This document shows, piece by piece, positions 119 through 16,778 of a stretch of DNA of 60,872 nt. Made by a program: the position numbers and the translations under genes. The notes beneath the pieces are model-generated. The model was given only the letters and a program-made list of their open reading frames with translations, was not told the DNA's origin and searched no databases. The stretch is from Kiritimatiellia bacterium (GTDB lineage: Bacteria; Verrucomicrobiota; Kiritimatiellia; RFP12; UBA1067). The stretch lies in contig JAZUHK010000030.1 in assembly GCA_045641645.1 (NCBI GenBank), forward strand, positions 1-60,872. The letters are read 5' to 3'. Position 1 is the stretch's first letter, and each line of letters starts with the position of its first letter.

Positions 119-216
119 CGCTTAAGTTAGCGGCATTCGGGACTGACCCTTGTGATACGGTTCGAGTGATACGGTCGGAATCTAAAGAGGGTCAGCGATG
201 AACGATGCACGGAATG

Positions 217-225
217 TGGTATAAT
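217..225 (+). promoter_or_regulatory. extended -10 box TGGTATAAT
   Basis: Exact TGnTATAAT. In-frame GTG 233 lies 7 nt downstream. The ATG at 224 sits inside the box. Confidence 0.5.
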
Positions 226-874
226 GGCGCGTGTGGAAGGTAGAATCGAGTCAAGGCGTGCGGCGACGGTTATCGTGGCGGCAGGAAGTTTCCCGCGAAA
301 GGGTTCGGCGGCGTGGAGGATCCTCGCGGACGCGAAGCGGGTTGTCGGTTGCGACGGCGCCGCCGCCGCTTATCGGCGGCGATTCGGCAAGTGGCCGGCG
401 GTGATCGTCGGTGACCTTGACAGTTTTCGGCCGCCAGTCGGTTTCAATGCCCAAGCCGCCGGCGCGAGCGAGATCGTCCGCGTTGACGATCAGAATCTGA
501 ACGATCTGGAAAAGGCGCTTCGCTTTTGCGCCGGGCGCGGGTGGCGGAATCCAGTGATCGTCGGCGCGACCGGAAAGCGCGAAGACCATATGCTCGGCAA
601 TGTCTTTAGGGCGCTTGCCTATGGATGTGAGATCGTGACGGACTTCGGCCGCTTCGTTCCAGTTCGCGGCAAGGCGGTCTTGAAGGTTGCGAAGGGCGCG
701 GCGGTTTCCGTTTTCGCGCCCGACCCTAAGACGCGGATGACCTCCAAGGGGCTTAAGTGGCCGCTCAATAAGGTGCAGTTCCGGAATCTTTACTGCGCGA
801 CGCTCAATCGGGCGACGGCGTCACGCATCACGCTAACGGCGACTTGCCCGGTTTCGGTTTACATTGAGGTTTGA
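224..874 (+). CDS. thiN: thiamine pyrophosphokinase
   Basis: 216-aa ORF with the GDLDS motif (AVIVGDLDSF) and the size and layout of TPK catalytic plus B1-binding domains. The true start may be GTG 233 because ATG 224 overlaps the -10 box. Confidence 0.65.
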   Translation: MARVEGRIESRRAATVIVAAGSFPRKGSAAWRILADAKRVVGCDGAAAAYRRRFGKWPAVIVGDLDSFRPPVGFNAQAAGASEIVRVDDQNLNDLEKALRFCAGRGWRNPVIVGATGKREDHMLGNVFRALAYGCEIVTDFGRFVPVRGKAVLKVAKGAAVSVFAPDPKTRMTSKGLKWPLNKVQFRNLYCATLNRATASRITLTATCPVSVYIEV

Positions 875-875
875 C

Positions 876-1214
876 ATGAAGCTGAAGTTGAACGGCATTC
901 AGGTGAACTGCATCATCGGCGAGCGCGCCGACGAGCGGCTGCGCGAGCAAGCACTTGCGGTCGATGTCGAACTGGAGATTCCCGACCGCGCGGCGGAGAC
1001 GGATGAGCTTGCCGATACGGTTGATTACGCCGCGCTCGCTGCGGCGATTCGCACGGCTCTTCGCGAGGCGAAGTGCAGGATGATCGAGCGCGCCGCGAAA
1101 ATCGTCTGCGAGGTCTGCCGTGCGGACGCGAAGGTGCGCTCGGTGACGGCGACGGTGACGAAGGCGGGTGCGGTCCCGGGTCTCGACTCGGCCTCGGCCG
1201 TCTATCGGGAGTGA
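876..1214 (+). CDS. folB: dihydroneopterin aldolase
   Basis: About 112 aa. The N-terminus (KLNGIQVNCIIGERADER...LAVDVELE...DELADTVDYAALA) matches the FolB pattern. ATG 876 follows the upstream stop by 1 nt. Confidence 0.7.
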   Translation: MKLKLNGIQVNCIIGERADERLREQALAVDVELEIPDRAAETDELADTVDYAALAAAIRTALREAKCRMIERAAKIVCEVCRADAKVRSVTATVTKAGAVPGLDSASAVYRE

Positions 1215-1242
1215 TTTTCAGGCACGAAAGGGAGGAGACGGG

Positions 1243-2742
1243 ATGAAGACCTTGCTGATGACCGGTTGCGCCGTGTGCGCGATTACCACATTTGCCGCGA
1301 TGGAGCGCGCGACCCCCGAGTCGCAGGGCGTCGATTCCGCGGCAATCTTGAAATTTATCGACGCGAGCGAAAAGGCCTTCGATGCGGGTCCGGCCGGGGC
1401 GCTTCACGGTTTTGTGATCGTCCGTCACGGCAAGGTGATCGCCGAGGGTAGCTGGAAGCCGTTTGACACCCTGAATGAGACGCATATGCTCTACTCGCAC
1501 TCGAAGAGCTTCACGTCGTCCGCCGTCGGCTTTCTCGCGGACGAGGGGAAGATCGACCTCGACGAGCGCATTGTCGATATCTTCTCGAACGAAGTTCCGG
1601 CGAAGGTGTCGAAGAATCTCGCGCAGCTCCGTGTGCGCGATCTCCTCACGATGAATGTCGGCAAGGATGATCACCTGTTGCGCGGCGGCGGCGGCGACTG
1701 GGTACACCAGTTTCTCGCGAAGAATTTCGTGCGCGAGCCCGGCAAGGGGTTCAAGTACGATTCCGATGCAACCTATATGCTTTCGGTGATCGTCGAGAAG
1801 AAGAGCGGCGAGAAGATGATGGACTACTTAAAGCGCAAGTTGTTCGACCGGATCGGCATCGAAAAGGCGTGGACGACGTATTCCGAGCAGGGCTTCGCCT
1901 GCGGCGGCTGGGGGATGAACATGACGACGCGAGAGCTCGCGCGGTTCGGCCAGCTTTATCTTAATCGCGGCAAGTGGGGGGATGAATACATCCTTTCTCC
2001 GTTCTGGGTGGATCTGGCGACGGCGCGCCACACTTGGAGCGGCTGGCAGAATGTCGGCGTCAAGTCGCTCGGCGAGGGAACGGACTGGGAGCAGGGCTAC
2101 GGCTTCCAGTTTTGGCGCTGTACGCACGGCGCGTATCGCGCGGACGGCGCGGCGGGGCAGCTCACGGTCGTGATGCCGAAGGAGGACATGGTCGTCTCGA
2201 TCCATGCGGGGCTTTCCGACATGCAGAAGGAGCTGCAGCTTATCTGGGACAACCTCCTGCCCGCGGCGAAGGACGCGCCGCTCACCGAGGATCCTGCGGC
2301 ACAGGCAAAGCTCAAGGACCGTCTTGCCAAGCTGGCGATCAAGCCGGTGCGTTGGGATTGCAGCTTTCGGATCGATTGGCAAAGAACTTTCGAGTTCAGG
2401 GATAATTCTCGCGGATTCAAGTCCATCGCCTTCGAGCCTGCCGAGAACGGGAGGGATGTTTGTTGCCGTCTTCAGACGCGCGCCGGGGAGCAGTCCTTCA
2501 TCGCCGGTGCAGGCAAGTGGGAGAAGGGCTCGATCCGCATCGACCCGGAAAATTACGAGGGGCTTGGTGGCTATATCGGCGAGCACAAGGTCGCCGCTTC
2601 GTGTGGTGTTGAGGACGGTCCTACCTTCCATCTGAAGGCCTATCTTACGGGCGACACTGGCTTCCTTGAGTTCAAGATCAAGGACGGCAAGCTCACGGGC
2701 GAGTTCTGGGCAATGAACGGTTGCAAACTGGAGTCGAAATGA
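1243..2742 (+). CDS. beta-lactamase-family serine hydrolase, secreted
   Basis: Signal-like N-terminus [20 protein letters not shown]-x-x-K motif in [17 protein letters not shown] Shine-Dalgarno upstream of ATG 1243. The longer ORF-track start at 1168 overlaps folB and is unlikely. Confidence 0.8.
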
Positions 2743-3206
2743 GCGTTGCGGAAAAACTGGTCGAGCTTCTGAAGGCGCGGGGGCTTACCTGCGCGACGGC
2801 GGAGAGCTGCACGGGCGGCGGAGTCGGGAGCGCCATCACCGCGGTGCCCGGATCAAGTGCCGTATTTATGGGCGGGGTCATCAGTTACGCCAACGAGGTG
2901 AAGCGTGAGGTCCTCGGCGTGAAAGCCGAGACGCTCGCGACAGTAGGCGCAGTCAGCGCCGAGACCGCTGCGCAGATGGCGGAGGGTGCGCGGCGCTTAT
3001 TGAAGACCGATCTCGCCGTGTCGCTTACTGGCATCGCGGGGCCGGACGGCGGCAGTGACGAAAAGCCGGTCGGGCTCGTGTGGTGCGGCCTCGCGACGAA
3101 GGACGGCGTCAGGACCGAGAAGTGCATCTTCCGCGGCGATCGCGCAGAGGTGCGGGAACAAGCGGTCACGCATGCGCTCGGCATGCTGACGATCGGTGCA
3201 ATGTAA
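2739..3206 (+). CDS. pncC: CinA-family nicotinamide-nucleotide amidohydrolase (PncC domain only)
   Basis: [18 protein letters not shown]...SYANEVK...TGIAGPDGG is characteristic of the CinA C-terminal/PncC domain. ATGA overlap with the upstream stop. Confidence 0.85.
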
Positions 3207-3214
3207 ATAGGTCG

Positions 3215-3865
3215 CTACGGCTTCTTGGGGCTGTGGCAGTAGCTCGCGATCGGGCAGCCGTCGCATTTCGGGCGCACGGGGTGGCAGCGGGTCTGGCCGA
3301 AGCTCACCAAGTGGCTGTTCCAGGTTTTCCAATACTTGACGGGCAGCAGTTGGCGAAGCGCCATCTCCGTCTCGACCGGTTTCGAGGTCTTCACGAGCTT
3401 GAGCCAGTTCGAGATGCGGTGAACATGAACATCTACGCAGATGGCCGGGAGACCGAAGCCGACGGCAACCGTGAGGTTCGCGGTCTTGCGTCCGACGCCG
3501 GGAAGTTCGCAGAGCTCCTCGACGGTGTGCGGCAGGACGCCGTCGAACTTCGCGTCAAGGACGTCGGGTAGCGCTTTCAAGTGCCGCGCCTTGTCGCGGT
3601 AGAATCCCACCGGGAAGATGAGCTTTTCTATCCGTGCGCGCGAAAGCTTGCGCAGTCCCGCCGGGGTGTCGCCGCCGGCGGAGAAGAGACGCCTGACGGC
3701 GCCGGCCGTGCAGGCGTCTTTGGTGCGGGCGGAGAGGATCGTCCCGACGAGCACGCAGAACGGATCGTGGGTCTGGGCTTCGATGAGCTCGATGATCGGC
3801 GCGGCGTGGGTCTTAAATTCCTTTTTCAGCGCTTTGCCGATGGCGGCAATGTCCTTGATGGTCAT
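3215..3865 (-). CDS. nth: endonuclease III (DNA glycosylase/AP lyase)
   Basis: HhH-GPD element (LPGVGRKTANL). C-terminal 4Fe-4S loop C-x6-C-x2-C-x5-C (CHPVRPKCDGCPIASYC). 216 aa. Confidence 0.9.
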   Translation of the reverse strand: MTIKDIAAIGKALKKEFKTHAAPIIELIEAQTHDPFCVLVGTILSARTKDACTAGAVRRLFSAGGDTPAGLRKLSRARIEKLIFPVGFYRDKARHLKALPDVLDAKFDGVLPHTVEELCELPGVGRKTANLTVAVGFGLPAICVDVHVHRISNWLKLVKTSKPVETEMALRQLLPVKYWKTWNSHLVSFGQTRCHPVRPKCDGCPIASYCHSPKKP

Positions 3866-3872
3866 GGCCGAT

Positions 3873-3881
3873 ATTCTACCA
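3873..3881 (-). promoter_or_regulatory. extended -10 box TGGTAGAAT for nth
   Basis: The minus strand reads TGGTAGAAT, ending 7 nt before the nth ATG (3865). No SD can fit in that space. Confidence 0.5.
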
Positions 3882-3917
3882 TATCTGGTGAGGTGGTTGC
3901 TGGTCGGACATTGGCTA

Positions 3918-3926
3918 TGCTATAAT
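3918..3926 (+). promoter_or_regulatory. extended -10 box TGCTATAAT for the YhcH-like gene
   Basis: Exact TGnTATAAT about 40 nt upstream of ATG 3968, with an AAGGAG SD in between. Divergent from the nth promoter. Confidence 0.5.
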
Positions 3927-3967
3927 GCCCCCGAGTTGGTTTTAAAGGAAAAGGAGCAAGCGGAAGT

Positions 3968-4444
3968 ATGAGAGGAGAGAAGGGCGTTTGCGTAATCGGC
4001 GATCTCGGGGAGCTTGGGCAGCTGGCCGCGCTCGGGCCGGGTTTTGCCGCAGCGGCGGCTTTTGCCGCGGAACATGAGCTTGCCGCGCTTAAGCCGGGAC
4101 GGCATGCGATTGACGGCGAGCGGGTCTTCGTCAATTGTGACGAGGTGGAGTTGGTCGAGCCGGCCTCGCGCAAGGTGGAGCTGCACCATCGGTATTTTGA
4201 CATTCATGTGCCACTCTTGGACGAGGAGCTTATCGGGGTTGGGAAGTTTGAGCTGGCCTCGCGCGGCACTTTTGACGCGGAGAGGGACATCGGCTTTTTC
4301 GAGCAGGCGGTAGAGTTTGAGCGGGTCGGGGTCGGCGAGTTCCTGCTTGCCTGGCCGGGGACGTGTGCGCATGCGCCGGCCTGCACGGATGGGGTGCGGC
4401 GGAAGACGCGCAAGCTCATCTTCAAGATTCTCGCTGAGGCATAG
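3968..4444 (+). CDS. YhcH/YjgK/YiaL (DUF386, EbgC-like) family protein
   Basis: 158 aa. The pattern HHRYFDIHVPL...GEFLLAWPGTCAHAP resembles the beta-sandwich YhcH family (HxxY.D.. and ..H.P motifs). Confidence 0.65.
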   Translation: MRGEKGVCVIGDLGELGQLAALGPGFAAAAAFAAEHELAALKPGRHAIDGERVFVNCDEVELVEPASRKVELHHRYFDIHVPLLDEELIGVGKFELASRGTFDAERDIGFFEQAVEFERVGVGEFLLAWPGTCAHAPACTDGVRRKTRKLIFKILAEA

Positions 4445-4486
4445 AGCCGACTTCACTCCGCTCGCTGCCGCTCCCTTCGCTTGTCG
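4400..4486 (+). repeat. 87-bp direct repeat, copy 1 (last 45 nt of the YhcH-like CDS plus 42 nt downstream)
   Basis: Matches 6615-6701 at 84 of 87 positions by hand alignment. Confidence 0.9.
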
Positions 4487-4519
4487 CATTTTCTTCCGCT
4501 TGGCGGCGTAGCGGTTTTT

Positions 4520-4528
4520 TGCTACACT
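4520..4528 (+). promoter_or_regulatory. -10-like box TGCTACACT, duplicate of the box at 6907-6915
   Basis: TTTTGCTACACTAT here versus TTTTGCTATACTAC at 6903-6916. It points into the low-GC insert. Confidence 0.35.
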
Positions 4529-4817
4529 ATTTTCCGTCCTGTGAAAGTCGGGGCGATGCCAATCGGCCTCTCGCCACCTCTAAGCGGGGCGAAGAACGCG
4601 TCACCACGCGGACTTGTTCGTTCAAGCGAAACGTCGAAATTTCACAAAGGAACGACATGTCCTGTGAGGGGTGCGCATGGCCGAACACTCGGCTGGGCGT
4701 GTCTCCTTGCATCCATGTTTTCCTTTAGGGCTTTCGACGGCCTCGCTTGAGAACACGGGTGAAGGAGGCACGCCCGCTTTATTGTTGCCTCTGTTTAAGT
4801 GACAATGGAAAAATCTT

Positions 4818-5291
4818 ATGTCTATAGTGTACACTGCGAGTAATGTGAAAAAGAGAGAATCGGCACTTAGCCAAGTATTATTTCGAGATCCAGGCATGGA
4901 TACGGAAAGAAGTTGGATTTTTCCGCGGGTGTTGAAGTTTTTATATTTTGCCACAATATTTTTAACTCTCATTTGTTCTGCAGCCTATTTGATTATTGGC
5001 ATTATTGGGATTTTACACGATGATTCTTTTGATTCAACGGAAAAATTTCTGATAGTTTGCGGCAGCATTGTTATTTTTCCTATTGCCGTGTTTTGCCTTC
5101 TCATAATTAACCGTATTGTATATGAATGGGCGATCCTTAAATTTAGGATATTTCAAGCATTGCGAGAGGCCGTGGACGGATTAGCTAGTGTTAATAAGTC
5201 GCTCGTTGGCATTTCAAAAGTACAACAAACCGCTGGGCAATATGTTTGCGATATGCTTGCAACGATTAACGATTCATTGGGAGGGTTATGA
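4818..5291 (+). CDS. small membrane protein, unknown function (low-GC insert gene 1)
   Basis: 157 aa. Two long hydrophobic segments (FLYFATIFLTLICSAAYLIIGIIGIL and FLIVCGSIVIFPIAVFCLLII) followed by RIVYEWAILKFRIF, a topology reminiscent of DUF4282. AT-rich codons. ATGA overlap with the next gene. Confidence 0.6.
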   Translation: MSIVYTASNVKKRESALSQVLFRDPGMDTERSWIFPRVLKFLYFATIFLTLICSAAYLIIGIIGILHDDSFDSTEKFLIVCGSIVIFPIAVFCLLIINRIVYEWAILKFRIFQALREAVDGLASVNKSLVGISKVQQTAGQYVCDMLATINDSLGGL

Positions 5292-6604
5292 ATAATTGGC
5301 CATTTTTCATTCTGGGGATTGCTTTTGGTCCTGCGGCGTTTCTATTTGCGTCGGCCAAACAAAAAGGAAGCATTTCTGCTACGATCAAAGGATGTTTTTG
5401 TTTTTTCTTGCTTGTGCTTGTTGGATGGAGGATTTCTGCGAATGTACAGAAAAGGAATGAGGAGCGAGCGCGAGAACGGCAATGTGCATATGAGCATCAA
5501 ATGAAAGTGCAATTGGCTGAAAAGGAACGTTTATTTACCGAGTTGCAGGAAAGAAAGAAAGCCGTTGAATGCTTAAGTAAAGAAATTGGGTTGCCGATAG
5601 ATAATTTTAAGCTTCGGCAGTGGGAATCAATAAGCGAATATGATTCTAAAGAAAAAATAGAGTCCATGCTTAGGGCGGCTAAAGAAGAACACTCGGAATT
5701 GCAAGCTGAACAAGCGAGAATTTTGGAAGAAAAGAAACTCAAAGAAGAATACGAGCAAAATCAAAAGGCATTGGCGCGTGAGATGGCGGCGCGACAAATG
5801 CGTGAAAATGAGAGGCAGGCGGAAGAAATGCGCGTGGCTGAACAAGAAAAATTGGAAGCGGAGAAATTTGCATTTCAAAAGGAGCAGGAGAAATTAAAGG
5901 CGATAGCAAAGAAAATGATCAACAAGCTTGATCTGTCCCCTTCATCTTGTTTGATGTATCATAAGTATCTGGCCAGCAGGATTAGGTCGGGGCGGTTTCC
6001 CCAATCGCTCAAGGAATTGCGAGAGGCAAAAAAACAAGGAGATTATCTCAAATTCCTAAATCTTGCCGCAAAAGATTCTGATTGCGAACATTATGTGCGT
6101 AATGGTGCGATGTATGAGTTCCCAGATCGGGAGGGGATCCAGACGATCTTGGCTTCTTTGCGAGATCGTTTGTTTGAGATAGAGCTTACCTTTCAAGAGG
6201 GGTTTGATGTATCACAAGTTTCTCTTGTGCAACTTCAGGCTGGCGGAGGAATACTAGGAGACGAGTTATTGGAAGATTGCAATTATTCTTGCAGTGGCGG
6301 GATAATGTATGTTCCAATGTCGGTTGGTCGCGGGAAGATGTATTTGATTGAAAAGGGGGCTGCGGCGTTTTTGAATCGAGAGCTTAAACGCATTAAGCAA
6401 AAGCAAGGAAATATGCAAAAAAAGCTGGAGGAGCTTTTGTCAAAAGATGTTTCGTATGACGAGGTACGCGCTTTGCGATTAAAAGCGGAGCAAGATCGTA
6501 TTGGAGAAGAAGCTCGTCGCATGAAGAATGCGAAGCGAGAACATCTCAGGATGAAAAACTATGATCCGCGGTGGGGTAGCGATGCGGGTCGGAGATGGCG
6601 GTGA
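5288..6604 (+). CDS. membrane-anchored coiled-coil protein, unknown function (low-GC insert gene 2)
   Basis: 438 aa. Two N-terminal hydrophobic segments. A roughly 150-aa E/K/Q/R-rich heptad-like region (about nt 5450-5900). C-terminal domain with no motif I recognise. Translationally coupled to gene 1. Confidence 0.6.
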   Translation: MNNWPFFILGIAFGPAAFLFASAKQKGSISATIKGCFCFFLLVLVGWRISANVQKRNEERARERQCAYEHQMKVQLAEKERLFTELQERKKAVECLSKEIGLPIDNFKLRQWESISEYDSKEKIESMLRAAKEEHSELQAEQARILEEKKLKEEYEQNQKALAREMAARQMRENERQAEEMRVAEQEKLEAEKFAFQKEQEKLKAIAKKMINKLDLSPSSCLMYHKYLASRIRSGRFPQSLKELREAKKQGDYLKFLNLAAKDSDCEHYVRNGAMYEFPDREGIQTILASLRDRLFEIELTFQEGFDVSQVSLVQLQAGGGILGDELLEDCNYSCSGGIMYVPMSVGRGKMYLIEKGAAAFLNRELKRIKQKQGNMQKKLEELLSKDVSYDEVRALRLKAEQDRIGEEARRMKNAKREHLRMKNYDPRWGSDAGRRWR

Positions 6605-6614
6605 TATTGAGGAT

Positions 6615-6701
6615 CGGAAGACGCGCAAGCTCATCTTCAAGATTCTCGCCGAGGCATAGAGCCGACTTCACTCCGCTCGCTATCGCTCCCTTCGCTTGTC
6701 G
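6615..6701 (+). repeat. 87-bp direct repeat, copy 2 (orphan copy of the YhcH-like 3' end)
   Basis: Still encodes RKTRKLIFKILAEA-stop in the appropriate frame but has no gene body upstream. 3 mismatches to copy 1. Confidence 0.9.
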
Positions 6702-6835
6702 GGGAGGCGCTCGGATAGCCGGCTTCGCTGCCGCTCCCTTCGCTCGTCGGGGAGGCGCTCGGATAGCCGACATCACTCCTCTCGCTATCGCTTCCTTCGC
6801 TCGCTGCCGCCCCCTTCGCTCGTCGTGGCGGCTTT
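6661..6835. repeat. REP-like tandem hairpin repeats (about 2.5 units of 48-60 bp)
   Basis: GCTCCCTTCGCT(T/C)GTCGGGGAGGCGCTCGGATAGCC occurs at 6685-6720 and 6733-6768, with a third degenerate unit following. Each unit can pair CGCTCCC with GGGAG(G)CG. A related inverted segment lies at 6861-6900. Confidence 0.75.
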
Positions 6836-6906
6836 CCGCTTTCTTTGTTTGTCTGGAGGGCAAGGAGCGGAAGGAGCGAAGCGAGTGGAGCTCCTTGCAT
6901 AAGTTT

Positions 6907-6915
6907 TGCTATACT
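6907..6915 (+). promoter_or_regulatory. extended -10 box TGCTATACT
   Basis: Ends 6 nt before ATG 6922. No SD is possible. Confidence 0.45.
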
Positions 6916-6921
6916 ACCGCC

Positions 6922-7836
6922 ATGGCATCGCACAATCCAGAGGTTGCGCTTCAGCAGCGAGACAAGGCCAGAGCACTCGAGCTTGGCTTAAGCGGTGATG
7001 CCTCCGCCGGGCCCGAACTCTGCAAGCTCGCCAAAAGCCGCTACCCGGAAGTTAGGCGGCTCGCCGCCTCCGCGCTCGGCAAGATCGCCAACGCACCGCC
7101 GACCGCCCTCGTTATCCCCACGCTCTTCTCCCTCGCCACCCAGGACGAGCGCCCGCAGATTCGCCAGTATGCCCTTAAATCGCTCGCCCGCTATCCGCGC
7201 GAGCTCCTCCTCATCATCGACGACCTCAAGGACCTCGCCCGCGATCCGACGCAAAAGGAATACGTTCGCACTGCCGCCGCCGAGGCCGTCGCTGCCGCGC
7301 AAAAGGCGAATCGCGAGCGCCTTGCCGCACAGAACCGCTGGTGCGCCCGTTGTCGGAGAGTCATCACCGAGGAGGAGTACTTCGCCGGCATGGAGCGCTA
7401 CGGCAGGGGCTACTGCCGCCATTGCCTCGACGAGAAGCTGCTGGAGGACCGGAACTTCGAGTCCGTCGTGGACCAGGCGAAGCGACTGCGCACGACCGAC
7501 GGCATCGCCGTCCAGTCCCATGGCGAAAAACGCATCGCCGCGTACCTGACCGCGAAAGATATCGCCTTTACCTACGACGAGCGCTATCGCATCGCGGGCG
7601 ACGCGCGCCTCCGGCCCGATTTCTATCTTCCGGAGTTTGACCTCTACATCGAATACTGGGGCATGAACACGCCCGACTACGAGCGCAACAAGCTCCGTAA
7701 GCGCATCCTCTACCAGCGCGCCGGCAAACGGCTCATCTCCCTCTCCTTTGCGGACGCAGACCGGCTGGAGCAAACACTCGAAGCGAAGCTTTCCAAGTAC
7801 ATTCGTCTGGGACCGGATACGGAAGGGGGTAGATAA
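6922..7836 (+). CDS. HEAT-repeat / zinc-ribbon / PD-(D/E)xK-like nuclease-fold protein
   Basis: N-terminal HEAT-like repeats (PEVRRLAASALGKI, RPQIRQYALKSLARYP). CxxC...CxxC (CARCRR...CRHC). The C-terminal block SHGEKRIAAYL...RPDFYLPEFDLYIEYWGM resembles the restriction-endonuclease-like module found at the N-termini of some SF1 helicases. The ORF-track start at 6595 runs through the repeats and is rejected. Confidence 0.5.
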   Translation: MASHNPEVALQQRDKARALELGLSGDASAGPELCKLAKSRYPEVRRLAASALGKIANAPPTALVIPTLFSLATQDERPQIRQYALKSLARYPRELLLIIDDLKDLARDPTQKEYVRTAAAEAVAAAQKANRERLAAQNRWCARCRRVITEEEYFAGMERYGRGYCRHCLDEKLLEDRNFESVVDQAKRLRTTDGIAVQSHGEKRIAAYLTAKDIAFTYDERYRIAGDARLRPDFYLPEFDLYIEYWGMNTPDYERNKLRKRILYQRAGKRLISLSFADADRLEQTLEAKLSKYIRLGPDTEGGR

Positions 7837-8774
7837 TGAGCAGGCGGCTGTTGGTGGGTTTCAAGGCGGGAGACCTGAGGGCGGAGATGCTTTCTGGCGA
7901 GGTCACCTGCCATACGCTCGACATCTATCACGCTCATGCAATCGAGAAGGTCTTTCCCAGGGCGCGCGTCGTCTGTACGCCCCATCTGCCCGCCGGCCCC
8001 TGGGATGAGATCGTCTTCCGCACGGGGCCGAAGGTGATGAGCGGGGAGCTTTCGCTTGACCTTCTCCAGGAGATCCATCTCCTGAAGCCCGCCGCGTTCC
8101 GGCTTGACTTCGTGGGCAAGGAGCGCGACCGCAATGACCTTCTCGACAAGGTGCGCAAAGACCCGGACCGCGTGCGCGACTTCTCGGCCGTCTGGCCAGC
8201 GAGCGTCCCCGGGGGCGAGAAACTTTTCTTTACGAGCTACCCCGGCTGCTTCTGTCATCGCCGTCTCGATGAGGGCGGTCTTGCCCTTGCAGAAGTGGTG
8301 ACGCGAGAAATGACGAATGAAGAATTTAGAATGAAGAATGGTGGAGGAGTTAGTCTCCTCGATATGGGGTGCGGTTGCGGGCTCGTCGGGCTTCTCATCG
8401 CGAAGCGCATTTCCGGGGTTCGTCTCACGCTGATCGACTCGCATACGCGGGCGGTGGAAGCGGCGCGCAAGAATGCCGCGGCTTTCGGCGTTGAGGCGAC
8501 GGTGATTCTCTCCGACGACGGCCTTCCGACTTCGCTCGCTGGTGAGGAGATGCCGCGCTTCGATGTCTTCGTGGGCAATCCTCCTTACTACAGCGACTAT
8601 CGCATCGCCGAGGTGTTCCTAACGACGGCGCAGCGCGCGCTTAAGTCGGGCGGTACCTGCTACACGGTGGTTAAGAATGAGACGGGGCTCAAGCCAGTGC
8701 AAGAGCGCTTCTTTCCGTCGGTGGAGGTGATCCGCCGTCGCGGCTATGCGGTACTCAAGTCGGTCAGGCAATAG
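7836..8774 (+). CDS. class I SAM-dependent methyltransferase, RsmC/RlmG-like
   Basis: PGCFCHRRLDEGG...LLDMGCGCGLVG (motif I) and VFVGNPPYY (motif IV, NPPY). TAATG overlap with the upstream gene. Confidence 0.75.
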   Translation: MSRRLLVGFKAGDLRAEMLSGEVTCHTLDIYHAHAIEKVFPRARVVCTPHLPAGPWDEIVFRTGPKVMSGELSLDLLQEIHLLKPAAFRLDFVGKERDRNDLLDKVRKDPDRVRDFSAVWPASVPGGEKLFFTSYPGCFCHRRLDEGGLALAEVVTREMTNEEFRMKNGGGVSLLDMGCGCGLVGLLIAKRISGVRLTLIDSHTRAVEAARKNAAAFGVEATVILSDDGLPTSLAGEEMPRFDVFVGNPPYYSDYRIAEVFLTTAQRALKSGGTCYTVVKNETGLKPVQERFFPSVEVIRRRGYAVLKSVRQ

Positions 8775-8891
8775 GCCTCTCCCTCCGCTTTCGCTCTTTC
8801 TGCCTCTTCGGATTTGCCCTGTCTGCTTATCCACAACCTATCCCCATTTTAGGGGATTTAACCCCCTATCTATGGCGGTTGAAAATATCTC

Positions 8892-8921
8892 TTGCATAGT
8901 AATTGAAAATTGTGGTATCAT
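8892..8921 (+). promoter_or_regulatory. sigma70-like promoter (TTGCAT, 18 nt spacer, TGgTATCAT)
   Basis: -35 at 8892-8897 and extended -10 at 8913-8921. GGAGAAGG SD precedes ATG 8949. Confidence 0.45.
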
Positions 8922-8948
8922 ATGCACCGTTATCTTTGGAGAAGGTTT

Positions 8949-11900
8949 ATGGCTATGCAGAAAAAAATGAAAGCAGTTACTTTCTTTGCAGTCGCGTTCG
9001 CGCTGTGCGGTGCGGCGTTGGCAAATCCCGTGGTCGTCAACTGGGTGACAGGTAATGTCGGAAACTACACCGATTTTCCGGTCGAAGATTGGACCGAGTC
9101 GCAAGCAGGCGTTGCCGAATTAGCGGGCGACGAGGACGCAAAGTACGTCACCTTCGAGTCGGATTATGACGATCCGCTCTTCTACAGGCCCTCGGGTTCG
9201 GCTTCGAAACTCGTGAGTGTCGAGTGGGCGATCCAGCTTATCGGCGGAGATATGGCGCCGACGATGGCTATCGATGGTATGGGTCCGGCGATTACGGCCA
9301 CTACCCCCGAAGATGAAAGCGACGATACTCCTGCTCAGTGGTATGGCTATGCGTTGACCAACGAGGTGGAAGCCGGCTGGGTCAAGCTTTTTGGCAACGT
9401 GCCCTCGAACGAGGTCTGGTACACGGTCAAGATCGAACAGGGGATGTTTGCCGGGGTTCGCAAGATTCGCTATTCCGTCAAGCCGGAGGGTGCGGAATCC
9501 TTTACGATCCTCAAGGATACTAACGAGAATGAGTGGTTCGTCGATCCGCGCACCAGTGGTGCTGGTCTCGCTTCGGCGAATTTCGTGGGTGCCGGTGCTT
9601 TCGGTGATTTCAAGATCGACAACACCTGGTTTGATCAGGGCGCGCTCGCGGGTACGGCTACGGCGGGCTTCGACTGGACGAACGCCACGGTCACGGTCTC
9701 CGTGGGCGATTCGTATGTGGCGGATGAATCGCCAATCATCCTTGAACTCAAGGTCTATGATGCCGCGGGTACGCAGGTGGGCACCTATGAAGCGGGTTTG
9801 ACAACGGATAGCGGCAAGGGTAAGGGCGTCTTCGATGTCGGCAATCTCACTCCGGGCGGTAACTACTCCTATGAAGTGGTGGCGAAAGTCGGGGACGAGG
9901 AGGTGGCTTCCTTTGCCCGTGACGGCAACCTAGTTTCCGCCAACAATGTGGAGTGGATTTGCGAGAATTCCACGAAAAAACTCGGCGGTGCGTTTGCCCC
10001 GATCCCCGTTTGGAACGGCGGCGTGGCCCAGCTCTCCAATGCGGTCTTTGCGGTTAATGACATTAACCAGGAAGAGGCCTCGAACCGGCTTATTCGCATT
10101 GAGAATACGCTGATGGGCTCGGAGTTGTGCGACGACCTCGGCATCTTGGAGGATTACGACCTTTCGGTCATTCAGGGCGCGATGCTGGCGTATGTTAATC
10201 CGGAGACGGAAGAGGCAAGCTGGCTGGGCGTGGTGGATGGCGAGTGGGTGACGCTTACGGGCGCGGCTCCGGCGGCGAACCAGAAGTATGTTGTCCGCGT
10301 CGATTTCGACTTCACGCTGGCGGAACCGAAGGTGCGCTACTCTGTTTCCGCAGATGACGGGGCTTCGTTCGCGACCCTTAGGTATGAGAATGCCGAGTGG
10401 CTGGCGATTGCGCCCGAGGTGGCGGCGGCGAAGACGGTCACGGCCATTGAGCTTCCGGGCAGCTGCTCCTTCTATGGCATGAAGGGCGATTATTATGACG
10501 CGGCCGTTGCCGAGGTGGGTGGTACAAAGTATTACACGCTCGATGCGGCGCTTGCCGCGGCGAAGGTTTCTGACCAGCAGGTGAAGCTCCTCACGAACCT
10601 CACCTATCTCCCGGGCGGCTTGGACGGCACGTGGACGATTGACGAGAATGGCAAGGCGTTGCAGATCCTTACGCCGGAAGACGGCTATACCTACACCTAT
10701 GCTGAAGGTGCGCTCACGGTTGAGGCCCAGGATATGTGCGTCAAGAACCTGACGAGGGGCTATCAGCACCTTAATCTCAAGGCGGCGCAGGCGCGCGCGG
10801 AGGAGGGCGACATCCTGCAGCTCCTCAAGAATGTCGGGGCGGCGGCACTGGCAATTGAGAAGTCGCTTACGTTGGACCTTAACAACTTTAGCGTCACCAA
10901 TGACGCGGTGGATACGCAGCTCTTAGTCCTCACCAATAATGTCACCTTTACGCTTGCCGGCGAGGGTGCGCTTACGGACGGAATTGACGTTTGGGCGGGC
11001 AGCAAGCTCGCGCTCTCCAATAACTTTGCCGCGGCGGCTGAGTCGGTTGCGCTGGAGCTTAAGGGCGAGTGGGCGCATGAGGCGGTGATTGCCGAGGGGG
11101 TCTCGGCAGCGCAGGCCGCGATGCTGGCGATTACGCCCGAGAAGATCGACTTCCCGACGGCTGGCAATGGTCAGGTGGAGTATCGTGAGGAAGATGGCAT
11201 GTTCGTCTGGGCGGAGATTCCGCCGTCGGCGAAGCTCGCGTTCGAGCGCACTGATGGCTATGACCTCACCAATTTGATAGTCACGGTGACGCTGAGCGAA
11301 GTGGCGGGCGATCTCAGTAAGGTGGTGATCGACCTCTATAACGAGAATGGCACGCTCGCGAAGCGCACGGCGGTTGATTATGTGGACAACACCTTGGTTT
11401 ATCCGATTGTCCTCGATGGTTATACGAAGGGCACGCGCTATACCTTCAACGCCTATGTCCTTGGCGGCGACTCCGAGGATGTTGTCGGCGGTGGCGCGGT
11501 GGCGGGTTCGTTCTATGCGGGCGCGAACGGCCAGATCTGGTTCCGTGCGAAGCCAGATGACATCCTCTACGGCGCATGGGAGGAGGAGCCGGAAGTAGGT
11601 GAGGATGGTCGCTATGTCCTCGACGGTGACGAATATGTCTTCACGCCCACGGAACAGTCGCCCTCGAATGCGTTTGTCACGGTGGATTGGCAGGTTTCCT
11701 TCGACCGCGCAGCGGATGAGGATCTTGCGCTTGATGTCGGCGGCGAAGGCGCGTTCTCGCTCTTCGCCGGGGCGGAGCCGGAGACCTGTGTCTGGAAGGG
11801 CTTGGGCAATGGCGCGTGGGTCACGCTTACGAACGCGGTTGCCGCGCAGCCGGGTGATTACCTTGTCCACGCCGATTTCGACTACACGCTGGCGGAACCG

Positions 11901-12728
11901 AAGGTGAGCTATGCGCTCATCGTGGACGGCAGGTTGTATCGCTTTGCGGATCCGGAGGGCAATGTGTGGTTCACGGTTGCTGACTCGGCGGGTCAGATTG
12001 CATCGGTGAGCGCGGTTGGCGAGGGCAAGTTGGATGTGGTCGAGGGCTTCTGGAGCATCGATGCGGTGGCGGCGATCGGCGATGAGTTCTTCGCGACGAT
12101 TGACGCGGCCGCGGCGGCGGGCAAGGACGATGAGAATAAGGTCATCAAGCTGCTCACCAATGTCACTTGGGCGCCGACGGAAAGCGGCACCTACTACTTC
12201 AACTTAAACGACTTTAGTGTTCAGGCGACGGATAATGTCACTTGGAACGCGAATGTCGCAACCGTGAGCGGCGGTGAGATGGAGATTGAGGAGATGGATG
12301 TGAAGATTAAAGTTGACACCTCGTTTATCAAGGAGCAGCTGCCGGGGCTGCCTGAGGGAGCAACGACTGAGCAGGTGGCGGAGGCCTTGAAGGCGCCGGG
12401 TGCAAACGGCTACAAGCTCTACGAGAGCTATGTCCTCGGCCTTGATCCGAAGGATGAGTTCTCGAAGCCGGTGCTGGTTGATGAGCTTTCGGCCAAGGCG
12501 GACAAGGTGGATGTCCAGGTGCTGAATGTGAGCGTCAATGCGAAGGCGGGTGTGGAGGTGAAATACTCTCTCGTTGCTGATACGGATCCCGAATTTAAGA
12601 TGGGCGTGGAATCCGAGAAGCAGGAGTCGGGTGTCTTCGAAGTTCCGCTCCCGAGCAATGACGAAACGGTGAAGTACTACAAGGTCAATTTCTACTTCTC
12701 GAACCCGGCTCCTGCTCCGGCGGATTGA
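8949..12728 (+). CDS. large secreted repeat protein (1,259 aa), unknown function
   Basis: Signal peptide MAMQKKMKAVTFFAVAFALCGAALA. A threefold internal module, for example GEWVTLTGAAPAANQKYVVRVDFDFTLAEPKVRYSV and GAWVTLTNAVAAQPGDYLVHADFDYTLAEPKVSYAL. Cap-like motifs KYYTLDAALAAAK..VKLLTNLTY and EFFATIDAAAAAGK..IKLLTNVTW. Confidence 0.75.
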   Translation: MAMQKKMKAVTFFAVAFALCGAALANPVVVNWVTGNVGNYTDFPVEDWTESQAGVAELAGDEDAKYVTFESDYDDPLFYRPSGSASKLVSVEWAIQLIGGDMAPTMAIDGMGPAITATTPEDESDDTPAQWYGYALTNEVEAGWVKLFGNVPSNEVWYTVKIEQGMFAGVRKIRYSVKPEGAESFTILKDTNENEWFVDPRTSGAGLASANFVGAGAFGDFKIDNTWFDQGALAGTATAGFDWTNATVTVSVGDSYVADESPIILELKVYDAAGTQVGTYEAGLTTDSGKGKGVFDVGNLTPGGNYSYEVVAKVGDEEVASFARDGNLVSANNVEWICENSTKKLGGAFAPIPVWNGGVAQLSNAVFAVNDINQEEASNRLIRIENTLMGSELCDDLGILEDYDLSVIQGAMLAYVNPETEEASWLGVVDGEWVTLTGAAPAANQKYVVRVDFDFTLAEPKVRYSVSADDGASFATLRYENAEWLAIAPEVAAAKTVTAIELPGSCSFYGMKGDYYDAAVAEVGGTKYYTLDAALAAAKVSDQQVKLLTNLTYLPGGLDGTWTIDENGKALQILTPEDGYTYTYAEGALTVEAQDMCVKNLTRGYQHLNLKAAQARAEEGDILQLLKNVGAAALAIEKSLTLDLNNFSVTNDAVDTQLLVLTNNVTFTLAGEGALTDGIDVWAGSKLALSNNFAAAAESVALELKGEWAHEAVIAEGVSAAQAAMLAITPEKIDFPTAGNGQVEYREEDGMFVWAEIPPSAKLAFERTDGYDLTNLIVTVTLSEVAGDLSKVVIDLYNENGTLAKRTAVDYVDNTLVYPIVLDGYTKGTRYTFNAYVLGGDSEDVVGGGAVAGSFYAGANGQIWFRAKPDDILYGAWEEEPEVGEDGRYVLDGDEYVFTPTEQSPSNAFVTVDWQVSFDRAADEDLALDVGGEGAFSLFAGAEPETCVWKGLGNGAWVTLTNAVAAQPGDYLVHADFDYTLAEPKVSYALIVDGRLYRFADPEGNVWFTVADSAGQIASVSAVGEGKLDVVEGFWSIDAVAAIGDEFFATIDAAAAAGKDDENKVIKLLTNVTWAPTESGTYYFNLNDFSVQATDNVTWNANVATVSGGEMEIEEMDVKIKVDTSFIKEQLPGLPEGATTEQVAEALKAPGANGYKLYESYVLGLDPKDEFSKPVLVDELSAKADKVDVQVLNVSVNAKAGVEVKYSLVADTDPEFKMGVESEKQESGVFEVPLPSNDETVKYYKVNFYFSNPAPAPAD

Positions 12729-12751
12729 GCACCCTGATTGGGGATAAAGCA

Positions 12752-12783
12752 AAACGGCGGGTTCCCCCCGCCGTTTGCTTTTT
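12752..12783 (+). terminator. intrinsic terminator
   Basis: Perfect 10-bp stem AAACGGCGGG / CCCGCCGTTT with a 5-nt loop, followed by GCTTTTT. It lies 24 nt after the stop codon. Confidence 0.85.
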
Positions 12784-12791
12784 GCTATAAT
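12783..12791 (+). promoter_or_regulatory. extended -10 box TGCTATAAT for rpe
   Basis: Exact TGnTATAAT immediately after the terminator. A 52-nt pyrimidine-rich leader precedes ATG 12844. Confidence 0.5.
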
Positions 12792-12843
12792 ACCCCTAAC
12801 CACCTCAATCCTCTACACTTCCACCTTCCATCTTCTCTCCCTT

Positions 12844-13515
12844 ATGATAGTTCCCAGTCACCAAATTCTCCCCTCGCTCTTGGCGGCCGACTTTGGCCGC
12901 CTGGCCGATGAAATCCGGCGGGCCGAGGCCTCGGGCGCCGATGCCCTGCATCTGGATATCATGGACCCGCACTTCGTGCCCAATATCTCCTTTGGTCCTG
13001 AGGTGGTGGCGCTGGCGAAAAAAGTGGCGCCCGGATTCTATCGGAACGTGCACCTGATGCTCTCGCGCCCCGATCTCATCATCGAGGCCTTCGCCCAGGC
13101 GGGGGCGCAGACGATTCAGCTTCATGTCGAGGCCGACTGCGATCTCCACACCGAGCTTAAGCGCGTTCGCGCGCTCGGGTTGAAGGCGGCGATCGTGCTC
13201 AACCCCGAGACGCCGGTCGAGCGGCTTGCGCCGTATCTTGGGGAAATCGACGAGGCGCTGGTGATGACGGTGCATCCGGGGTATGGCGGGCAGAAGTTTA
13301 TTGCCGAGTGTCTTCCTAAGGTGACGTGGCTTCGGGAGCGGTGCCCTGCGCTGGACATCATGATCGATGGCGGCGGCAATGCGGAGACGATTCCGCTCGC
13401 GGCGCAGGCGGGGGCGAATCAGTTTGTGGCGGGCTCCTATCTCTTCAAGCAGCCCGACATGAAGGCGGCCGTCACTGACCTCCGCAATCGCCTGGCCAAT
13501 AACTCCTTAACTTAA
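12844..13515 (+). CDS. rpe: ribulose-phosphate 3-epimerase
   Basis: PSLLAADFGRLADE...HLDIMDPHFVPNISFG...MTVHPGYGGQKF...DGG are classic Rpe motifs. Confidence 0.9.
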   Translation: MIVPSHQILPSLLAADFGRLADEIRRAEASGADALHLDIMDPHFVPNISFGPEVVALAKKVAPGFYRNVHLMLSRPDLIIEAFAQAGAQTIQLHVEADCDLHTELKRVRALGLKAAIVLNPETPVERLAPYLGEIDEALVMTVHPGYGGQKFIAECLPKVTWLRERCPALDIMIDGGGNAETIPLAAQAGANQFVAGSYLFKQPDMKAAVTDLRNRLANNSLT

Positions 13516-13620
13516 CAATCTCAAATCTCAAATTTCAAATCTCTAAAATCTCACCGTTCTCCACCTCCACCTACTTTCCACACCTTCTTCTCCACCTCCA
13601 CCTATTTTCTCCACCTTCTC
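13516..13620 (-). repeat. polypurine composite repeat, reverse orientation (two cores plus a heptamer tail)
   Basis: The reverse complement reads GAAGGTGGAGAAAATAGGTGGAGGTGGA and GAAGGTGTGGAAAGTAGGTGGAGGTGGA, followed by GAGATTT-type repeats. This is the same architecture as 47048-47117. Confidence 0.85.
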
Positions 13621-13637
13621 TATTACCCCTAACCCCT

Positions 13638-14159
13638 ATGCGTAGAATTCTCCTTGGCGTTACTGGATCGATTGCGGCCTACAAGGCCGTGGAATTGGTG
13701 CGGCTCTTCATTAAACACGGCGATCAGGTGCAGGTGGTGATGACCCCTGCGGCGACGGAGTTCGTAAGACCCCTTACCTTCCAGACCCTCTCCCGCAATC
13801 CCGTCTTCGTCGAGCAGTTCGCGCCGATTGTCTCCTGGAAGCCCGAGCATATCGCGCTTTCGGAATGTGACCTTGCGCTCGTCGCGCCGGCGACGGCGAA
13901 TACGCTCGCGAAGATGCGCTACGGCCTCGCCGACAATCTCCTCACGGCGACGCTCCTCGCGACGCGCGCGCCGATCTGGGTGGCGCCGGCGATGAATACG
14001 GGCATGTGGGAGAGCCCCGTCACGCAGGAGAACCTCGCCGCGCTTAAAGCGCGCGGGGTCACGGTTATCGAACCCGTTGATGGCGAGCTGGCCTGTGGCG
14101 TCAAGGGTAACGGACGGATGATGGATCCCGAGAAAATTTTCGCGGCGGTCAGCCGATAA
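13638..14159 (+). CDS. coaC: phosphopantothenoylcysteine decarboxylase (stand-alone CoaC flavoprotein)
   Basis: GVTGSIAAYK, PAMNTGMW and the GELACGVKGNGRM substrate clamp. Only 173 aa, with no CoaB domain fused. Confidence 0.8.
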   Translation: MRRILLGVTGSIAAYKAVELVRLFIKHGDQVQVVMTPAATEFVRPLTFQTLSRNPVFVEQFAPIVSWKPEHIALSECDLALVAPATANTLAKMRYGLADNLLTATLLATRAPIWVAPAMNTGMWESPVTQENLAALKARGVTVIEPVDGELACGVKGNGRMMDPEKIFAAVSR

Positions 14160-14174
14160 GGAATGGGGGTGGAA

Positions 14175-14864
14175 ATGAAGACGATGGTGGTGATTCCCAC
14201 TTATGACGAAAAGGACAATGTCGCGCGGATGGCGGCGGCGGTGCTGGCGACCGAGGGCGTGGAACTGCTCTTCGTGGACGACAATTCGCCCGACGGGACG
14301 GGCGCGGCCATTGAGGAGCTGATGAAGGGCGATGAGCGCATCCACTGCCTGCACCGCGAAAAGAAGGAGGGGCTCGGGCGTGCGTATGTGGCGGGTTTCG
14401 AGCGGGCGCTGGAATTGGGCGCCGAGAAGATCGTTCAGATGGACTGCGATTTCTCGCATGATCCGAAGGATCTGCCGCGGCTCATCGCCGAGGATGCGGA
14501 TCTCGTCATCGGCTCGCGGTATGTGCCCGGTGGCGCCACGCCCGGCTGGCCGTTCAAGCGGCGGCTCATCTCGCGGGCGGGCGGGCTCTTCATTCGCACG
14601 GTGACGGGGATGCCGCTTAAGGATCCGACCGGCGGGTTCAAGTGCTGGAAGGCGGAGACGCTTCACAAGATCGACTTCCAGACCGTCGGTTCCAAGGGCT
14701 ATTCGTTCCAGCTGGAGATGAACCACCGCACTTGGAAGGCGGGGTGTACGATTCGCGAAATTCCGATTGTCTTCACCGATCGCGTGGCGGGCTACTCGAA
14801 GATCACGCCCGGAATCGCCACCGAGTCGATCAAGATCGCCCTTAAGCTCCGTTTCGGCAAATGA
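14175..14864 (+). CDS. GT2 polyprenol-phosphate mannosyltransferase-like glycosyltransferase
   Basis: VVIPTYDEKDN...LFVDDNSPDGT...QMDCDFSHDP is typical of Dpm1/Ppm1-type GT2 enzymes. Confidence 0.8.
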   Translation: MKTMVVIPTYDEKDNVARMAAAVLATEGVELLFVDDNSPDGTGAAIEELMKGDERIHCLHREKKEGLGRAYVAGFERALELGAEKIVQMDCDFSHDPKDLPRLIAEDADLVIGSRYVPGGATPGWPFKRRLISRAGGLFIRTVTGMPLKDPTGGFKCWKAETLHKIDFQTVGSKGYSFQLEMNHRTWKAGCTIREIPIVFTDRVAGYSKITPGIATESIKIALKLRFGK

Positions 14865-16646: not shown

Positions 16647-16654
16647 CAAGGAGA

Positions 16655-16663
16655 AGTGTAGCA
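16655..16663 (-). promoter_or_regulatory. -10 box TGCTACACT for the regulator
   Basis: Ends 8 nt before ATG 16646. Confidence 0.4.
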
Positions 16664-16733
16664 TAAATTTTGCGGTTTGGTCAATTAGTGGGATTTTGCT
16701 TAGTCGAAAATTAGGGTCACTGGGTTGGTTTTG

Positions 16734-16742
16734 TGCTACAAT
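16734..16742 (+). promoter_or_regulatory. extended -10 box TGCTACAAT for the GH5 gene
   Basis: Lies 36 nt upstream of ATG 16779, with a GGGGGGAAG SD in between. Confidence 0.45.
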
Positions 16743-16778
16743 GCTGAGAATTAGTAAATTGAGCATGGGGGGAAGATT

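Follow-up and report, generated by a model that had tools for sequence, protein, structure and literature searches.

The 60,872-nt stretch of the Kiritimatiellia contig JAZUHK010000030.1 that was analysed here (60.9 kb, hereafter the window; coordinates refer to it unless another contig is named by an L number) contains a segment of foreign DNA, 2128 bp long, at positions 4487-6614. It is certain that this segment has been inserted at the 3' end of a gene of the YhcH family. Two direct copies of an 87-bp repeat, each with the end of YhcH, bound the segment. Between them lie a promoter, a structured leader RNA, and two genes, and six contigs of the same species carry the site without the segment. 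Tentatively, with a probability of roughly 0.45, we read the segment as a recently acquired, strain-specific mobile cassette without its own recombinase, which would have brought along a copy of the gene end and used it to enter by reciprocal recombination. The features of the locus, with L003 being one of the contigs with an empty site, are the following:

3968-4444, plus strand: YhcH/YjgK/YiaL (DUF386) target gene, 158 amino acids (Pfam PF04074, E=5.4e-26)
4400-4486, plus strand: left repeat copy (attL-like); the colinear alignment to L003 stops exactly at 4486
4487-4519, plus strand: left end of the insert, a spacer ending in T6, with no match in any empty-site contig
4520-4528, plus strand: extended -10 promoter TGCTACACT, within the inserted DNA (match to the motif TGCTAYAMT)
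4535-4800, plus strand: conserved structured leader RNA of ~265 nt, GC-rich and non-coding (fold, homology, covariation)
4818-5291, plus strand: ORF157, first cargo gene, encoding a small two-helix membrane protein with DUF4282 (PF14110, E=2.1e-06, 28.6 bits at a cutoff of 27)
5288-6604, plus strand: ORF438, second cargo gene, an open reading frame (ORF) of 438 amino acids
6615-6701, plus strand: right repeat copy (attR-like), an orphan YhcH 3' end; the colinear alignment to L003 resumes exactly at 6615, and the copy is continuous with the native intergenic array
6660-6860, plus strand: native spacer between YhcH and the HEAT gene, a tandem array of ~48-57-nt units (Tandem Repeats Finder, period 48; repeat families D1 and D2)
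6907-7836 including the promoter, plus strand: gene of a HEAT_CxxC_PD-(D/E)XK protein, a candidate anti-phage defence nuclease (PADLOC PDLC01150, E=8.1e-77; Pfam HEAT repeats)

The two copies of the repeat (family D3) are identical at 84 of 87 positions (97%), and the exact stretches common to both are only 35, 31, and 18 nt long. The first 45 nt of each copy are the coding end of YhcH with its stop codon, and the remaining 42 nt are the start of the first tandem unit of the intergenic spacer. In both copies the coding part is CGG AAG ACG CGC AAG CTC ATC TTC AAG ATT CTC GCY GAG GCA TAG, which translates to RKTRKLIFKILAEA followed by the stop. The left copy provides the last 14 codons and the stop of YhcH, which keeps the gene intact, and the 158 residues of its product equal the length of the orthologues at empty sites. 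The right copy has no YhcH gene body upstream; ORF438 ends at 6604 instead. The repeat analysis thus reconfirmed what a preliminary description of the window had reported, namely a repeat of this length and identity with the last 14 codons and stop of YhcH and a second copy without gene body. The three differences between the copies are located at positions that are polymorphic between strains (position 36, T/C; positions 68-69, GC/AT/GT), and therefore the copies look like two alleles of the population. It had also been considered that the repeat might be one member of a dispersed family resembling repetitive extragenic palindromic (REP) sequences. Allowing for at most three mismatches, a 19-nt core of the repeat matches four times compared to 0.13 expected matches, and all four are local, in the two copies and the adjacent tandem array. 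This rules out a dispersed REP-like family.

The YhcH and HEAT proteins belong to 90%-identity clusters with members from other metagenomes, through which relatives of the locus were reached; peptide-pattern searches in GTDB genomes and JGI metagenomes did not find any close relative. An orthologue of YhcH is also encoded in the assembly GCA_024500545.1. Six contigs of the same species from six different samples span the site (L003, which is 39 kb long, L004, L005, L006, L017, and L019). All six contain YhcH, one copy of the repeat, and then directly the HEAT gene. Accordingly, the check for an empty site with a single 87-bp copy that the preliminary description had proposed came out in favour of an insertion, and its opposite, an arrangement shared by all relatives, was not found. 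In blastn alignments, window 212-4486 corresponds to L003 6235-10519 and window 6615-15537 to L003 10433-19343. These two alignments share exactly 87 bp on L003, from which it follows that the inserted DNA spans 4487-6614. On either side, and including the HEAT gene, the flanks have 97-99.7% identity to L003 (97-99% for the empty-site contigs), and the insertion is thus a polymorphism within the species. Having six contigs with an empty site also means that the insertion is real and strain-specific. The inserted DNA itself does not match any relative contig or any other part of the window. The YhcH region is a mosaic, with 90% identity to L003 at 3812-4111 and 97-99% nearby.

The composition of the inserted DNA is that of a foreign sequence, as had been claimed before. 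The G+C content is 0.36-0.47 over 4800-6600, compared to 0.56-0.68 in the flanks and 0.618 in the whole window, of which this is the lowest-GC stretch. At third codon positions (GC3) the value is 0.35 for ORF157 and 0.43 for ORF438, whereas the other long ORFs have 0.61-0.91 except for one ORF of 121 residues (0.45). There is no tRNA or tmRNA gene in the window that could have been the target. Xer-dependent elements (IMEX, dif modules) have 28-bp dif-like XerC/XerD sites on their flanks and use, or derive from, the place where chromosome dimers are resolved; here the insertion site is the 3' end of a gene, and the cumulative GC skew climbs almost steadily along the window without a terminus-like turn. 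On reading the sequence, no microhomology is obvious at the junctions. The preliminary description had further proposed that the whole interval from the gene end to the promoter was duplicated, based on TTTTGCTACACTAT at 4516-4529 and TTTTGCTATACTAC at 6903-6916. This part of the claim was not supported. The additional piece is a match to the motif TGCTAYAMT and, as this is the general extended -10 element of the organism, the match may reflect the promoter consensus and not a duplication. Beyond 4486, co-linear similarity to the native spacer is otherwise limited to 12 nt that match the L003 allele, which is marginal (reached in 3 of 500 shuffles).

The cassette is compact. The promoter lies 34 nt from the left repeat and the stop codon of ORF438 is 10 nt from the right repeat, and the promoter and the conserved structured RNA occupy the ~330 bp that separate the left repeat from ORF157. 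The element TGCTACACT would, judged from its sequence, drive both the leader RNA and the operon. In the related cassettes of the contigs L020 and L022, which are described below, TGGTATAAT is found at the homologous position. At the left end of the insert, a stem formed by 4487-4519 with CCGCTCGCTGCC, which is located inside the repeat, could together with the T6 run possibly serve as a replacement terminator of YhcH; the predicted fold is not significant (z=-0.9).

The leader RNA is better conserved than the cargo proteins. It is composed of a P1 hairpin, which carries a 33-nt insertion specific to the window, a rod-like composite hairpin of ~51 bp, the single-stranded conserved segment GAGAACAYGGGUG, and a 3' hairpin. 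The single-sequence fold has a z of -5.8 against shuffles. The region 4528-4800 is homologous to L020 4483-4725 and L022 3788-4030, giving an RNA size of ~240-265 nt. In the alignment of these three sequences, which was used to assess covariation, the consensus structure contains 72 base pairs, 97.2% of the cells are paired, and compensatory changes are present in 14 pairs. Sliding the partners by 1-3 columns leaves 2-3 compensated pairs, and none of 500 shuffles reaches the observed values. The 3' hairpin is also kept upstream of the cassette in L001, with compensatory changes as judged by eye. A search with Rfam 15 did not reveal any match in the window at the gathering threshold, the only match being one to a microRNA by chance (E=0.76), and the loci of L020, L022, and L001 do not have an Rfam match either. 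Because the RNA sits between the promoter and the operon, it would most simply be a cis-regulatory leader. For the conserved segment GGGCGUGUCUCC there are two possible partners, one inside the rod and the other at 4762-4775, and these alternative pairings, as modelled, may suggest a switch. Short complementarities exist between the leader RNA and the flanking repeats. The energies of these duplexes are the same as those of shuffled sequences (z between -1.2 and +0.3), and the idea of a guide RNA was therefore rejected.

The second cargo gene belongs to a very small family. Its product ORF438 starts with a transmembrane segment, followed by a coiled coil of ~150 residues and a conserved alpha/beta domain (residues ~200-395). 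It has no match in Pfam, PADLOC, or PHROGs, and no other member at an identity of at least 90% was found among ~15 billion proteins. There are only two close homologues among 5.8 billion clusters (34-35% identity; contigs L001 and L002), and both have a homologue of ORF157 immediately before them, which is 40-42% identical to the window protein. Searching 1.84 billion representatives with a C-terminal domain profile yielded 18 proteins. None of eight remote homologues scanned contains a Pfam domain above the cutoff, the AlphaFold model of ORF438 (pLDDT, the predicted local distance difference test, 74.9) does not match any fold in the PDB, and among PDB chains nothing matches the profile of the conserved domain significantly in sequence (best E=0.24). 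Most cassettes of the ORF438 family are found on contigs of 2-4 kb. Such short contigs are consistent with assembly graphs breaking at the cassette borders, where flanks are strain-variable or repeated. Concerning the function, a membrane-acting defence or stress module is a guess that we make with low confidence. Three features are consistent with a defence or envelope-stress cargo, namely the topology of the two proteins in the membrane, the extreme divergence of the alleles from neighbouring lineages, and the neighbours, which are the HEAT_CxxC_PD-(D/E)XK candidate nuclease here and vapBC in L020; PADLOC itself has no significant match for the cargo.

Remote homologues of ORF438 are encoded in a second host lineage, P0038 (26% identical) on the contigs L020 and L021 and P0072 on L022. 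Here the cassettes contain three genes, coding for a small Zn-ribbon membrane protein with a match to TM2 or DUF4282, a protein of 274 or 288 residues, and an ORF438 homologue of 469 or 478 residues. They are preceded by the homologous leader RNA, which in L021 is cut by the contig start. In L020, a contig of 8.3 kb, the cassette lies between 54-nt direct repeats (4373-4426 and 7920-7973) that are 93% identical, and the left copy is found 14 nt past the stop of a PIN (vapC-like) gene. Between the last cassette gene and the right repeat, L020 contains four tandem 22-nt units (GGGAWTWATGAGACC..., 7700-7851). In L022, the 54-nt repeat follows right after a kinase gene (1649-1700) and appears again at 3677-3730. 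The first interval is filled by a different cargo, a 591-aa protein without Pfam or PADLOC match, behind the same promoter and first hairpin, and the second repeat copy precedes the RNA cassette. In this lineage, units of repeat, promoter, and cargo are thus arranged in tandem. The adjacent kinase is 95% identical between L020 and L022 at the protein level, the host sequences beside the site share 94-95% identity, and the stretch of repeat plus RNA has 85% nucleotide identity over 347 nt, whereas the cassette proteins are only 40-47% identical. Divergent cassettes therefore share one site behind a conserved 5' module in this lineage. The vapBC pair (PIN toxin) is a precise indel between the two contigs (L020 3702-4358 compared to L022 1645-1649) directly upstream of the 54-nt repeat, and the site behaves as a small variable island. 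The 54-nt repeat can form a hairpin with 10-nt inverted arms around the 5-nt centre AATAT (z=-2.8 and -2.2), a geometry that by analogy would be typical of recombinase core sites. The 54-nt and 87-bp repeats have no recognisable sequence in common.

None of the searches for the means of mobility was successful. In the insert, no recombinase was found with Pfam, PADLOC, and PHROGs for both cargo genes and with Pfam for seven small ORFs, and the latter, none of which has a Pfam match, do not include an excisionase or a hidden recombinase. The long ORFs of the window that were scanned with Pfam (60 kb) do not contain an integrase, transposase, or recombinase gene, as had been noted before from the letters, and no recombinase gene was found on L020 and L022. 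There are no pseudogene remnants in the insert and no terminal inverted repeats that would pair its ends. Neither tblastn nor blastn retrieved a match for the cassette from phage and plasmid collections, the cargo has no match in PHROGs, and no relative of the cassette was found in IMG/VR; a fragment of a phage or plasmid was rejected on these grounds. The 13 matches to patterns in IMG/VR are chance matches, as nhmmer does not find the leader RNA there. Also, neither the window nor L003 contains a cognate element of the same att specificity.

How could a segment without recombinase gene have been inserted between two copies of a gene end? According to the interpretation that we favour, the cassette would arrive as a circular or circularisable molecule that already bears one copy of the 87-bp YhcH gene end. 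One reciprocal crossover between the carried and the chromosomal copy would then place the cassette between the attL-like copy at 4400-4486 and the attR-like copy at 6615-6701, leaving YhcH intact and the HEAT gene with its native spacer and promoter. The enzyme would have to come from outside the cassette, either as a site-specific recombinase acting in trans or through RecA-dependent, Campbell-type recombination. This order of events is favoured because the repeat starts 14 codons inside YhcH, runs past the stop, and keeps the gene, which is the layout of a substitute gene end, and because the copies resemble two alleles, which would fit a cassette that had picked up its own copy in another strain. 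It is also favoured because the cassette is compact and complete, and because in the L020/L022 lineage one site has been reused by divergent cassettes and has accreted cargos in tandem, resembling an att-type site (PMC5704250). That one site is occupied by divergent cassettes speaks for site-directed and not for random insertion. Several observations weigh against it, however. No recombinase gene was found in the insert, among the long ORFs of the window, or on L020 and L022. The repeats of the two host lineages are unrelated, each being a local sequence, and thus a single attP-type site cannot explain both. ORF438 is alone at an identity of at least 90% among the ~15 billion proteins, and the site is empty in all six relatives that span it. 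This is odd for a cassette that would have circulated in the species long enough to gain a species-specific gene end. Finally, the GC3 of 0.35-0.43 is un-ameliorated, suggesting a recent arrival from a donor of lower G+C content that would not carry the 87-bp sequence.

The last points would be expected if the duplication had been made at the insertion, with an illegitimate or replicative joining copying 87 bp of the target and the cassette never having carried a YhcH end. Possible routes are a repair process that switches templates, the filling-in of a break with long staggered ends, and illegitimate recombination that is facilitated by homology and leaves overlapping joints. The repeats would then be expected to be unrelated between the lineages, each being a local sequence with a length of its own, as is found (87 and 54 nt), and neither the absence of a recombinase gene nor the uniqueness of the cassette to this genome in the databases would be surprising. 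The GC3 of the cargo, far from that of the host, is consistent with a direct arrival from a distant donor, and the mosaicism of the YhcH region (90% at 3812-4111) means that a later allele replacement could explain the three mismatches. Under random joining, however, it would be a coincidence that the duplication starts inside a gene and still keeps it, the copies differ at 3 of 87 positions that are all polymorphic in the population, and no junction microhomology is obvious. In addition, independent random insertions are hard to reconcile with the site that divergent cassettes and tandem cargos have reused in L020 and L022. On balance we regard a duplication made at the insertion as rather unlikely. 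The preliminary description had compared the repeats to the classic attL/attR scar of site-specific integration, allowing for a decayed island, mobilisation in trans, or another insertion mechanism. The part that stands is a genuine foreign insertion at a duplicated YhcH end; as for att sites of a recombinase, a Campbell-type crossover or a duplication at the insertion fits about as well.

It is improbable that the segment is the decayed remnant of a larger island, for example a prophage, an integrative and conjugative element (ICE), or an integrative and mobilizable element (IME), from which the integrase and other genes have been deleted. Such a remnant would be a classical cis-mobilizable element (CIME), and both the attL/attR-like repeats including a gene 3' end and the absence of integration or transfer genes fit the definition of CIMEs (PMC5704250). 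Against this, there are no pseudogene fragments, no Pfam matches in small ORFs, and no homology to phages or plasmids, and the functional parts nearly abut the repeats (promoter 34 nt from the left, stop 10 nt from the right one). The layout of repeat, promoter, RNA, operon, and repeat recurs in an unrelated lineage, which would need two equally tidy decays. We consider an assembly artefact very improbable. In that case, a separate circle or DNA of another organism containing the 87-bp segment would have been threaded into the contig at a repeat node of the assembly graph. The window itself appears to be a metagenome-type contig from an uncultured genome, all its relatives here are metagenome contigs, the insert is present on this contig only, and many homologous cassettes are on contigs of 2-4 kb, suggesting graph breaks at their borders. 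On the other hand, the copies differ at three positions and share exact stretches of just 35, 31, and 18 nt, hence they are not one collapsed node, and L020 shows the same architecture independently within one contig. Moreover, a foreign molecule would still need the YhcH end of this species, which is the att-type scenario itself.

In comparison with known systems, the locus resembles the islands that tyrosine integrases place at gene 3' ends. In both cases repeats flank low-GC DNA, the target gene stays intact, and the empty site has precisely one copy. The element of the window differs in having only 2.1 kb and neither integrase nor excisionase, its site is not a tRNA or tmRNA gene, and the related cassette uses an unrelated repeat. 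A laboratory paradigm for the proposed crossover is the Campbell-type integration of suicide plasmids, which gives the same product, with the shared segment duplicated in direct orientation on either side of the insert and the copies being chimeric. The natural case would need a circle with 87 bp of the YhcH end of this very species, and 87 bp are short for efficient RecA recombination. CIMEs have retained att-like repeats, lack integration and transfer genes, and can accrete in tandem at att sites (PMC5704250). The cassettes are similar with respect to their att-like repeats and missing mobility genes, and L022 contains two cargos in tandem that are separated by the same repeat. The repeats of the window are att-like in their layout, but the cassette does not contain ICE or IME remnants; neither a cognate element nor an integrase is seen, and promoter, leader, and operon fill the unit completely.

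Integron cassettes and clusters of attC sites lacking integron-integrases (CALINs) also contain one to three genes in tandem arrays with a repeated hairpin-forming site, and CALINs have no recombinase nearby. Integron cassettes are usually promoterless, whereas the present cassettes have their own promoter and 5' leader, and the repeat of the window is a piece of a host gene. No GTTRRRY is present at any boundary in the window or L020, and the only RYYYAAC lies inside the promoter region of L020, so that integron attC sites were rejected. Homology-facilitated illegitimate recombination during natural transformation does not need an enzyme of the element and inserts foreign DNA beside a homologous anchor, but it usually deletes target DNA and leaves the reuse of one site by divergent cassettes unexplained. 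A DDE transposon, insertion sequence (IS), or miniature inverted-repeat transposable element was rejected because terminal inverted repeats and a transposase are missing and the duplication has 87 bp instead of 2-15 bp. An IS110-type element, which would encode a DEDD recombinase and a bridge RNA whose loops pair with target and donor, was rejected as no recombinase was found and the duplexes between RNA and repeats are at shuffle level. The segment would thus best be described as a minimal att-type cassette that lacks a recombinase gene and has a leader RNA absent from Rfam. It could also be that the cassettes of both lineages belong to an undescribed class of tiny recombinase-less mobile units that are defined by a conserved structured 5' RNA of ~250 nt. 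Such units would land by gene ends or intergenic hairpins, duplicate 54-87 bp of any local sequence, and build tandem arrays of swappable membrane-protein cargos, and the RNA, or the module of promoter plus P1 hairpin that is common to different cargos, would aid targeting or mobilisation beyond regulation. Taken together, we judge this set of assumptions to be quite unlikely.

Downstream of the cassette, the native spacer is a hypervariable tandem array with the unit AGCCGAC...CGCTCCCTTCGCTCGTCGGGRNGGCGCTCGGAT (window 6660-6860, L003 10478-10678, L019 334-792). The distance between YhcH and the HEAT gene is 139 nt in L005 and L006, 186 nt in L017, 201 nt in L003 and L004, 262 nt in the window, and 459 nt in L019. 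According to a terminator scan, the spacer is closed by a terminator-like hairpin with a T-run at 6827-6850, which also lies 3' of the cassette operon. The HEAT gene is found in all strains with an empty site. Between the end of its own extended -10 element TGCTATACT and the ATG at 6922 there are only 6 nt, and this distance suggests that its mRNA may be leaderless. The motif TGCTAYAMT is present at eight sites in the window (3918, 4520, 6907, 12783, 16655 on the minus strand, 16734, and 22767 and 52165 on the minus strand) compared to 0.39 expected sites, and those at 3918, 4520, 6907, and 12783 are followed by an ORF start within ~300 nt. It is likely the main promoter signature of the organism.

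Outside of the insert, the window encodes core genes such as ftsA, ftsZ, ddl, mutL, and smc (Pfam). A second indel between strains comprises window ~15538-16128 and ~16230-17792 compared to L003 19337-19591. L003 is without most of an AraC-type regulator (15519-16784, minus strand) and of a GH5 glycoside hydrolase gene (16779-17915); short fragments have been kept, and the junctions overlap by 7-8 bp. The stretches 8115-8414 and 8715-12914, which are part of a methyltransferase gene and a 1272-aa secreted or surface protein without Pfam domain (8910-12728), are only 73-93% identical to L003. The genes next to them reach 97-99% identity, so that these stretches represent hypervariable surface loci. 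Upstream of YhcH, nth (endonuclease III, 3215-3865) belongs to a 90%-identity protein cluster with 559 members. Its member P0024, whose DNA is ~79% identical to the nth gene of the window, is found on hundreds of contigs (surveyed for L007-L016), several of which are labelled as pig gut. These contigs have a different gene neighbourhood and were uninformative for the insertion site. The host is probably an uncultured bacterium associated with the gut.

The locus offers a clean and datable gain of a small gene module without a visible mobility gene, for which both the occupied and the empty alleles are in hand. Scans for mobile elements that are keyed on integrases and transposases miss such events. 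The module contains a structured RNA that is new to Rfam, has strong support from covariation, and is better conserved than the proteins encoded downstream of it. In addition, it contains a tiny uncharacterised protein family that is found beside defence-type genes, a HEAT-PD-(D/E)XK nuclease here and vapBC in the other lineage. If a recombinase acting in trans turned out to use the repeats as substrates, or if a new route of insertion turned out to have produced them, this would add to the known ways by which gut bacteria swap small cassettes.

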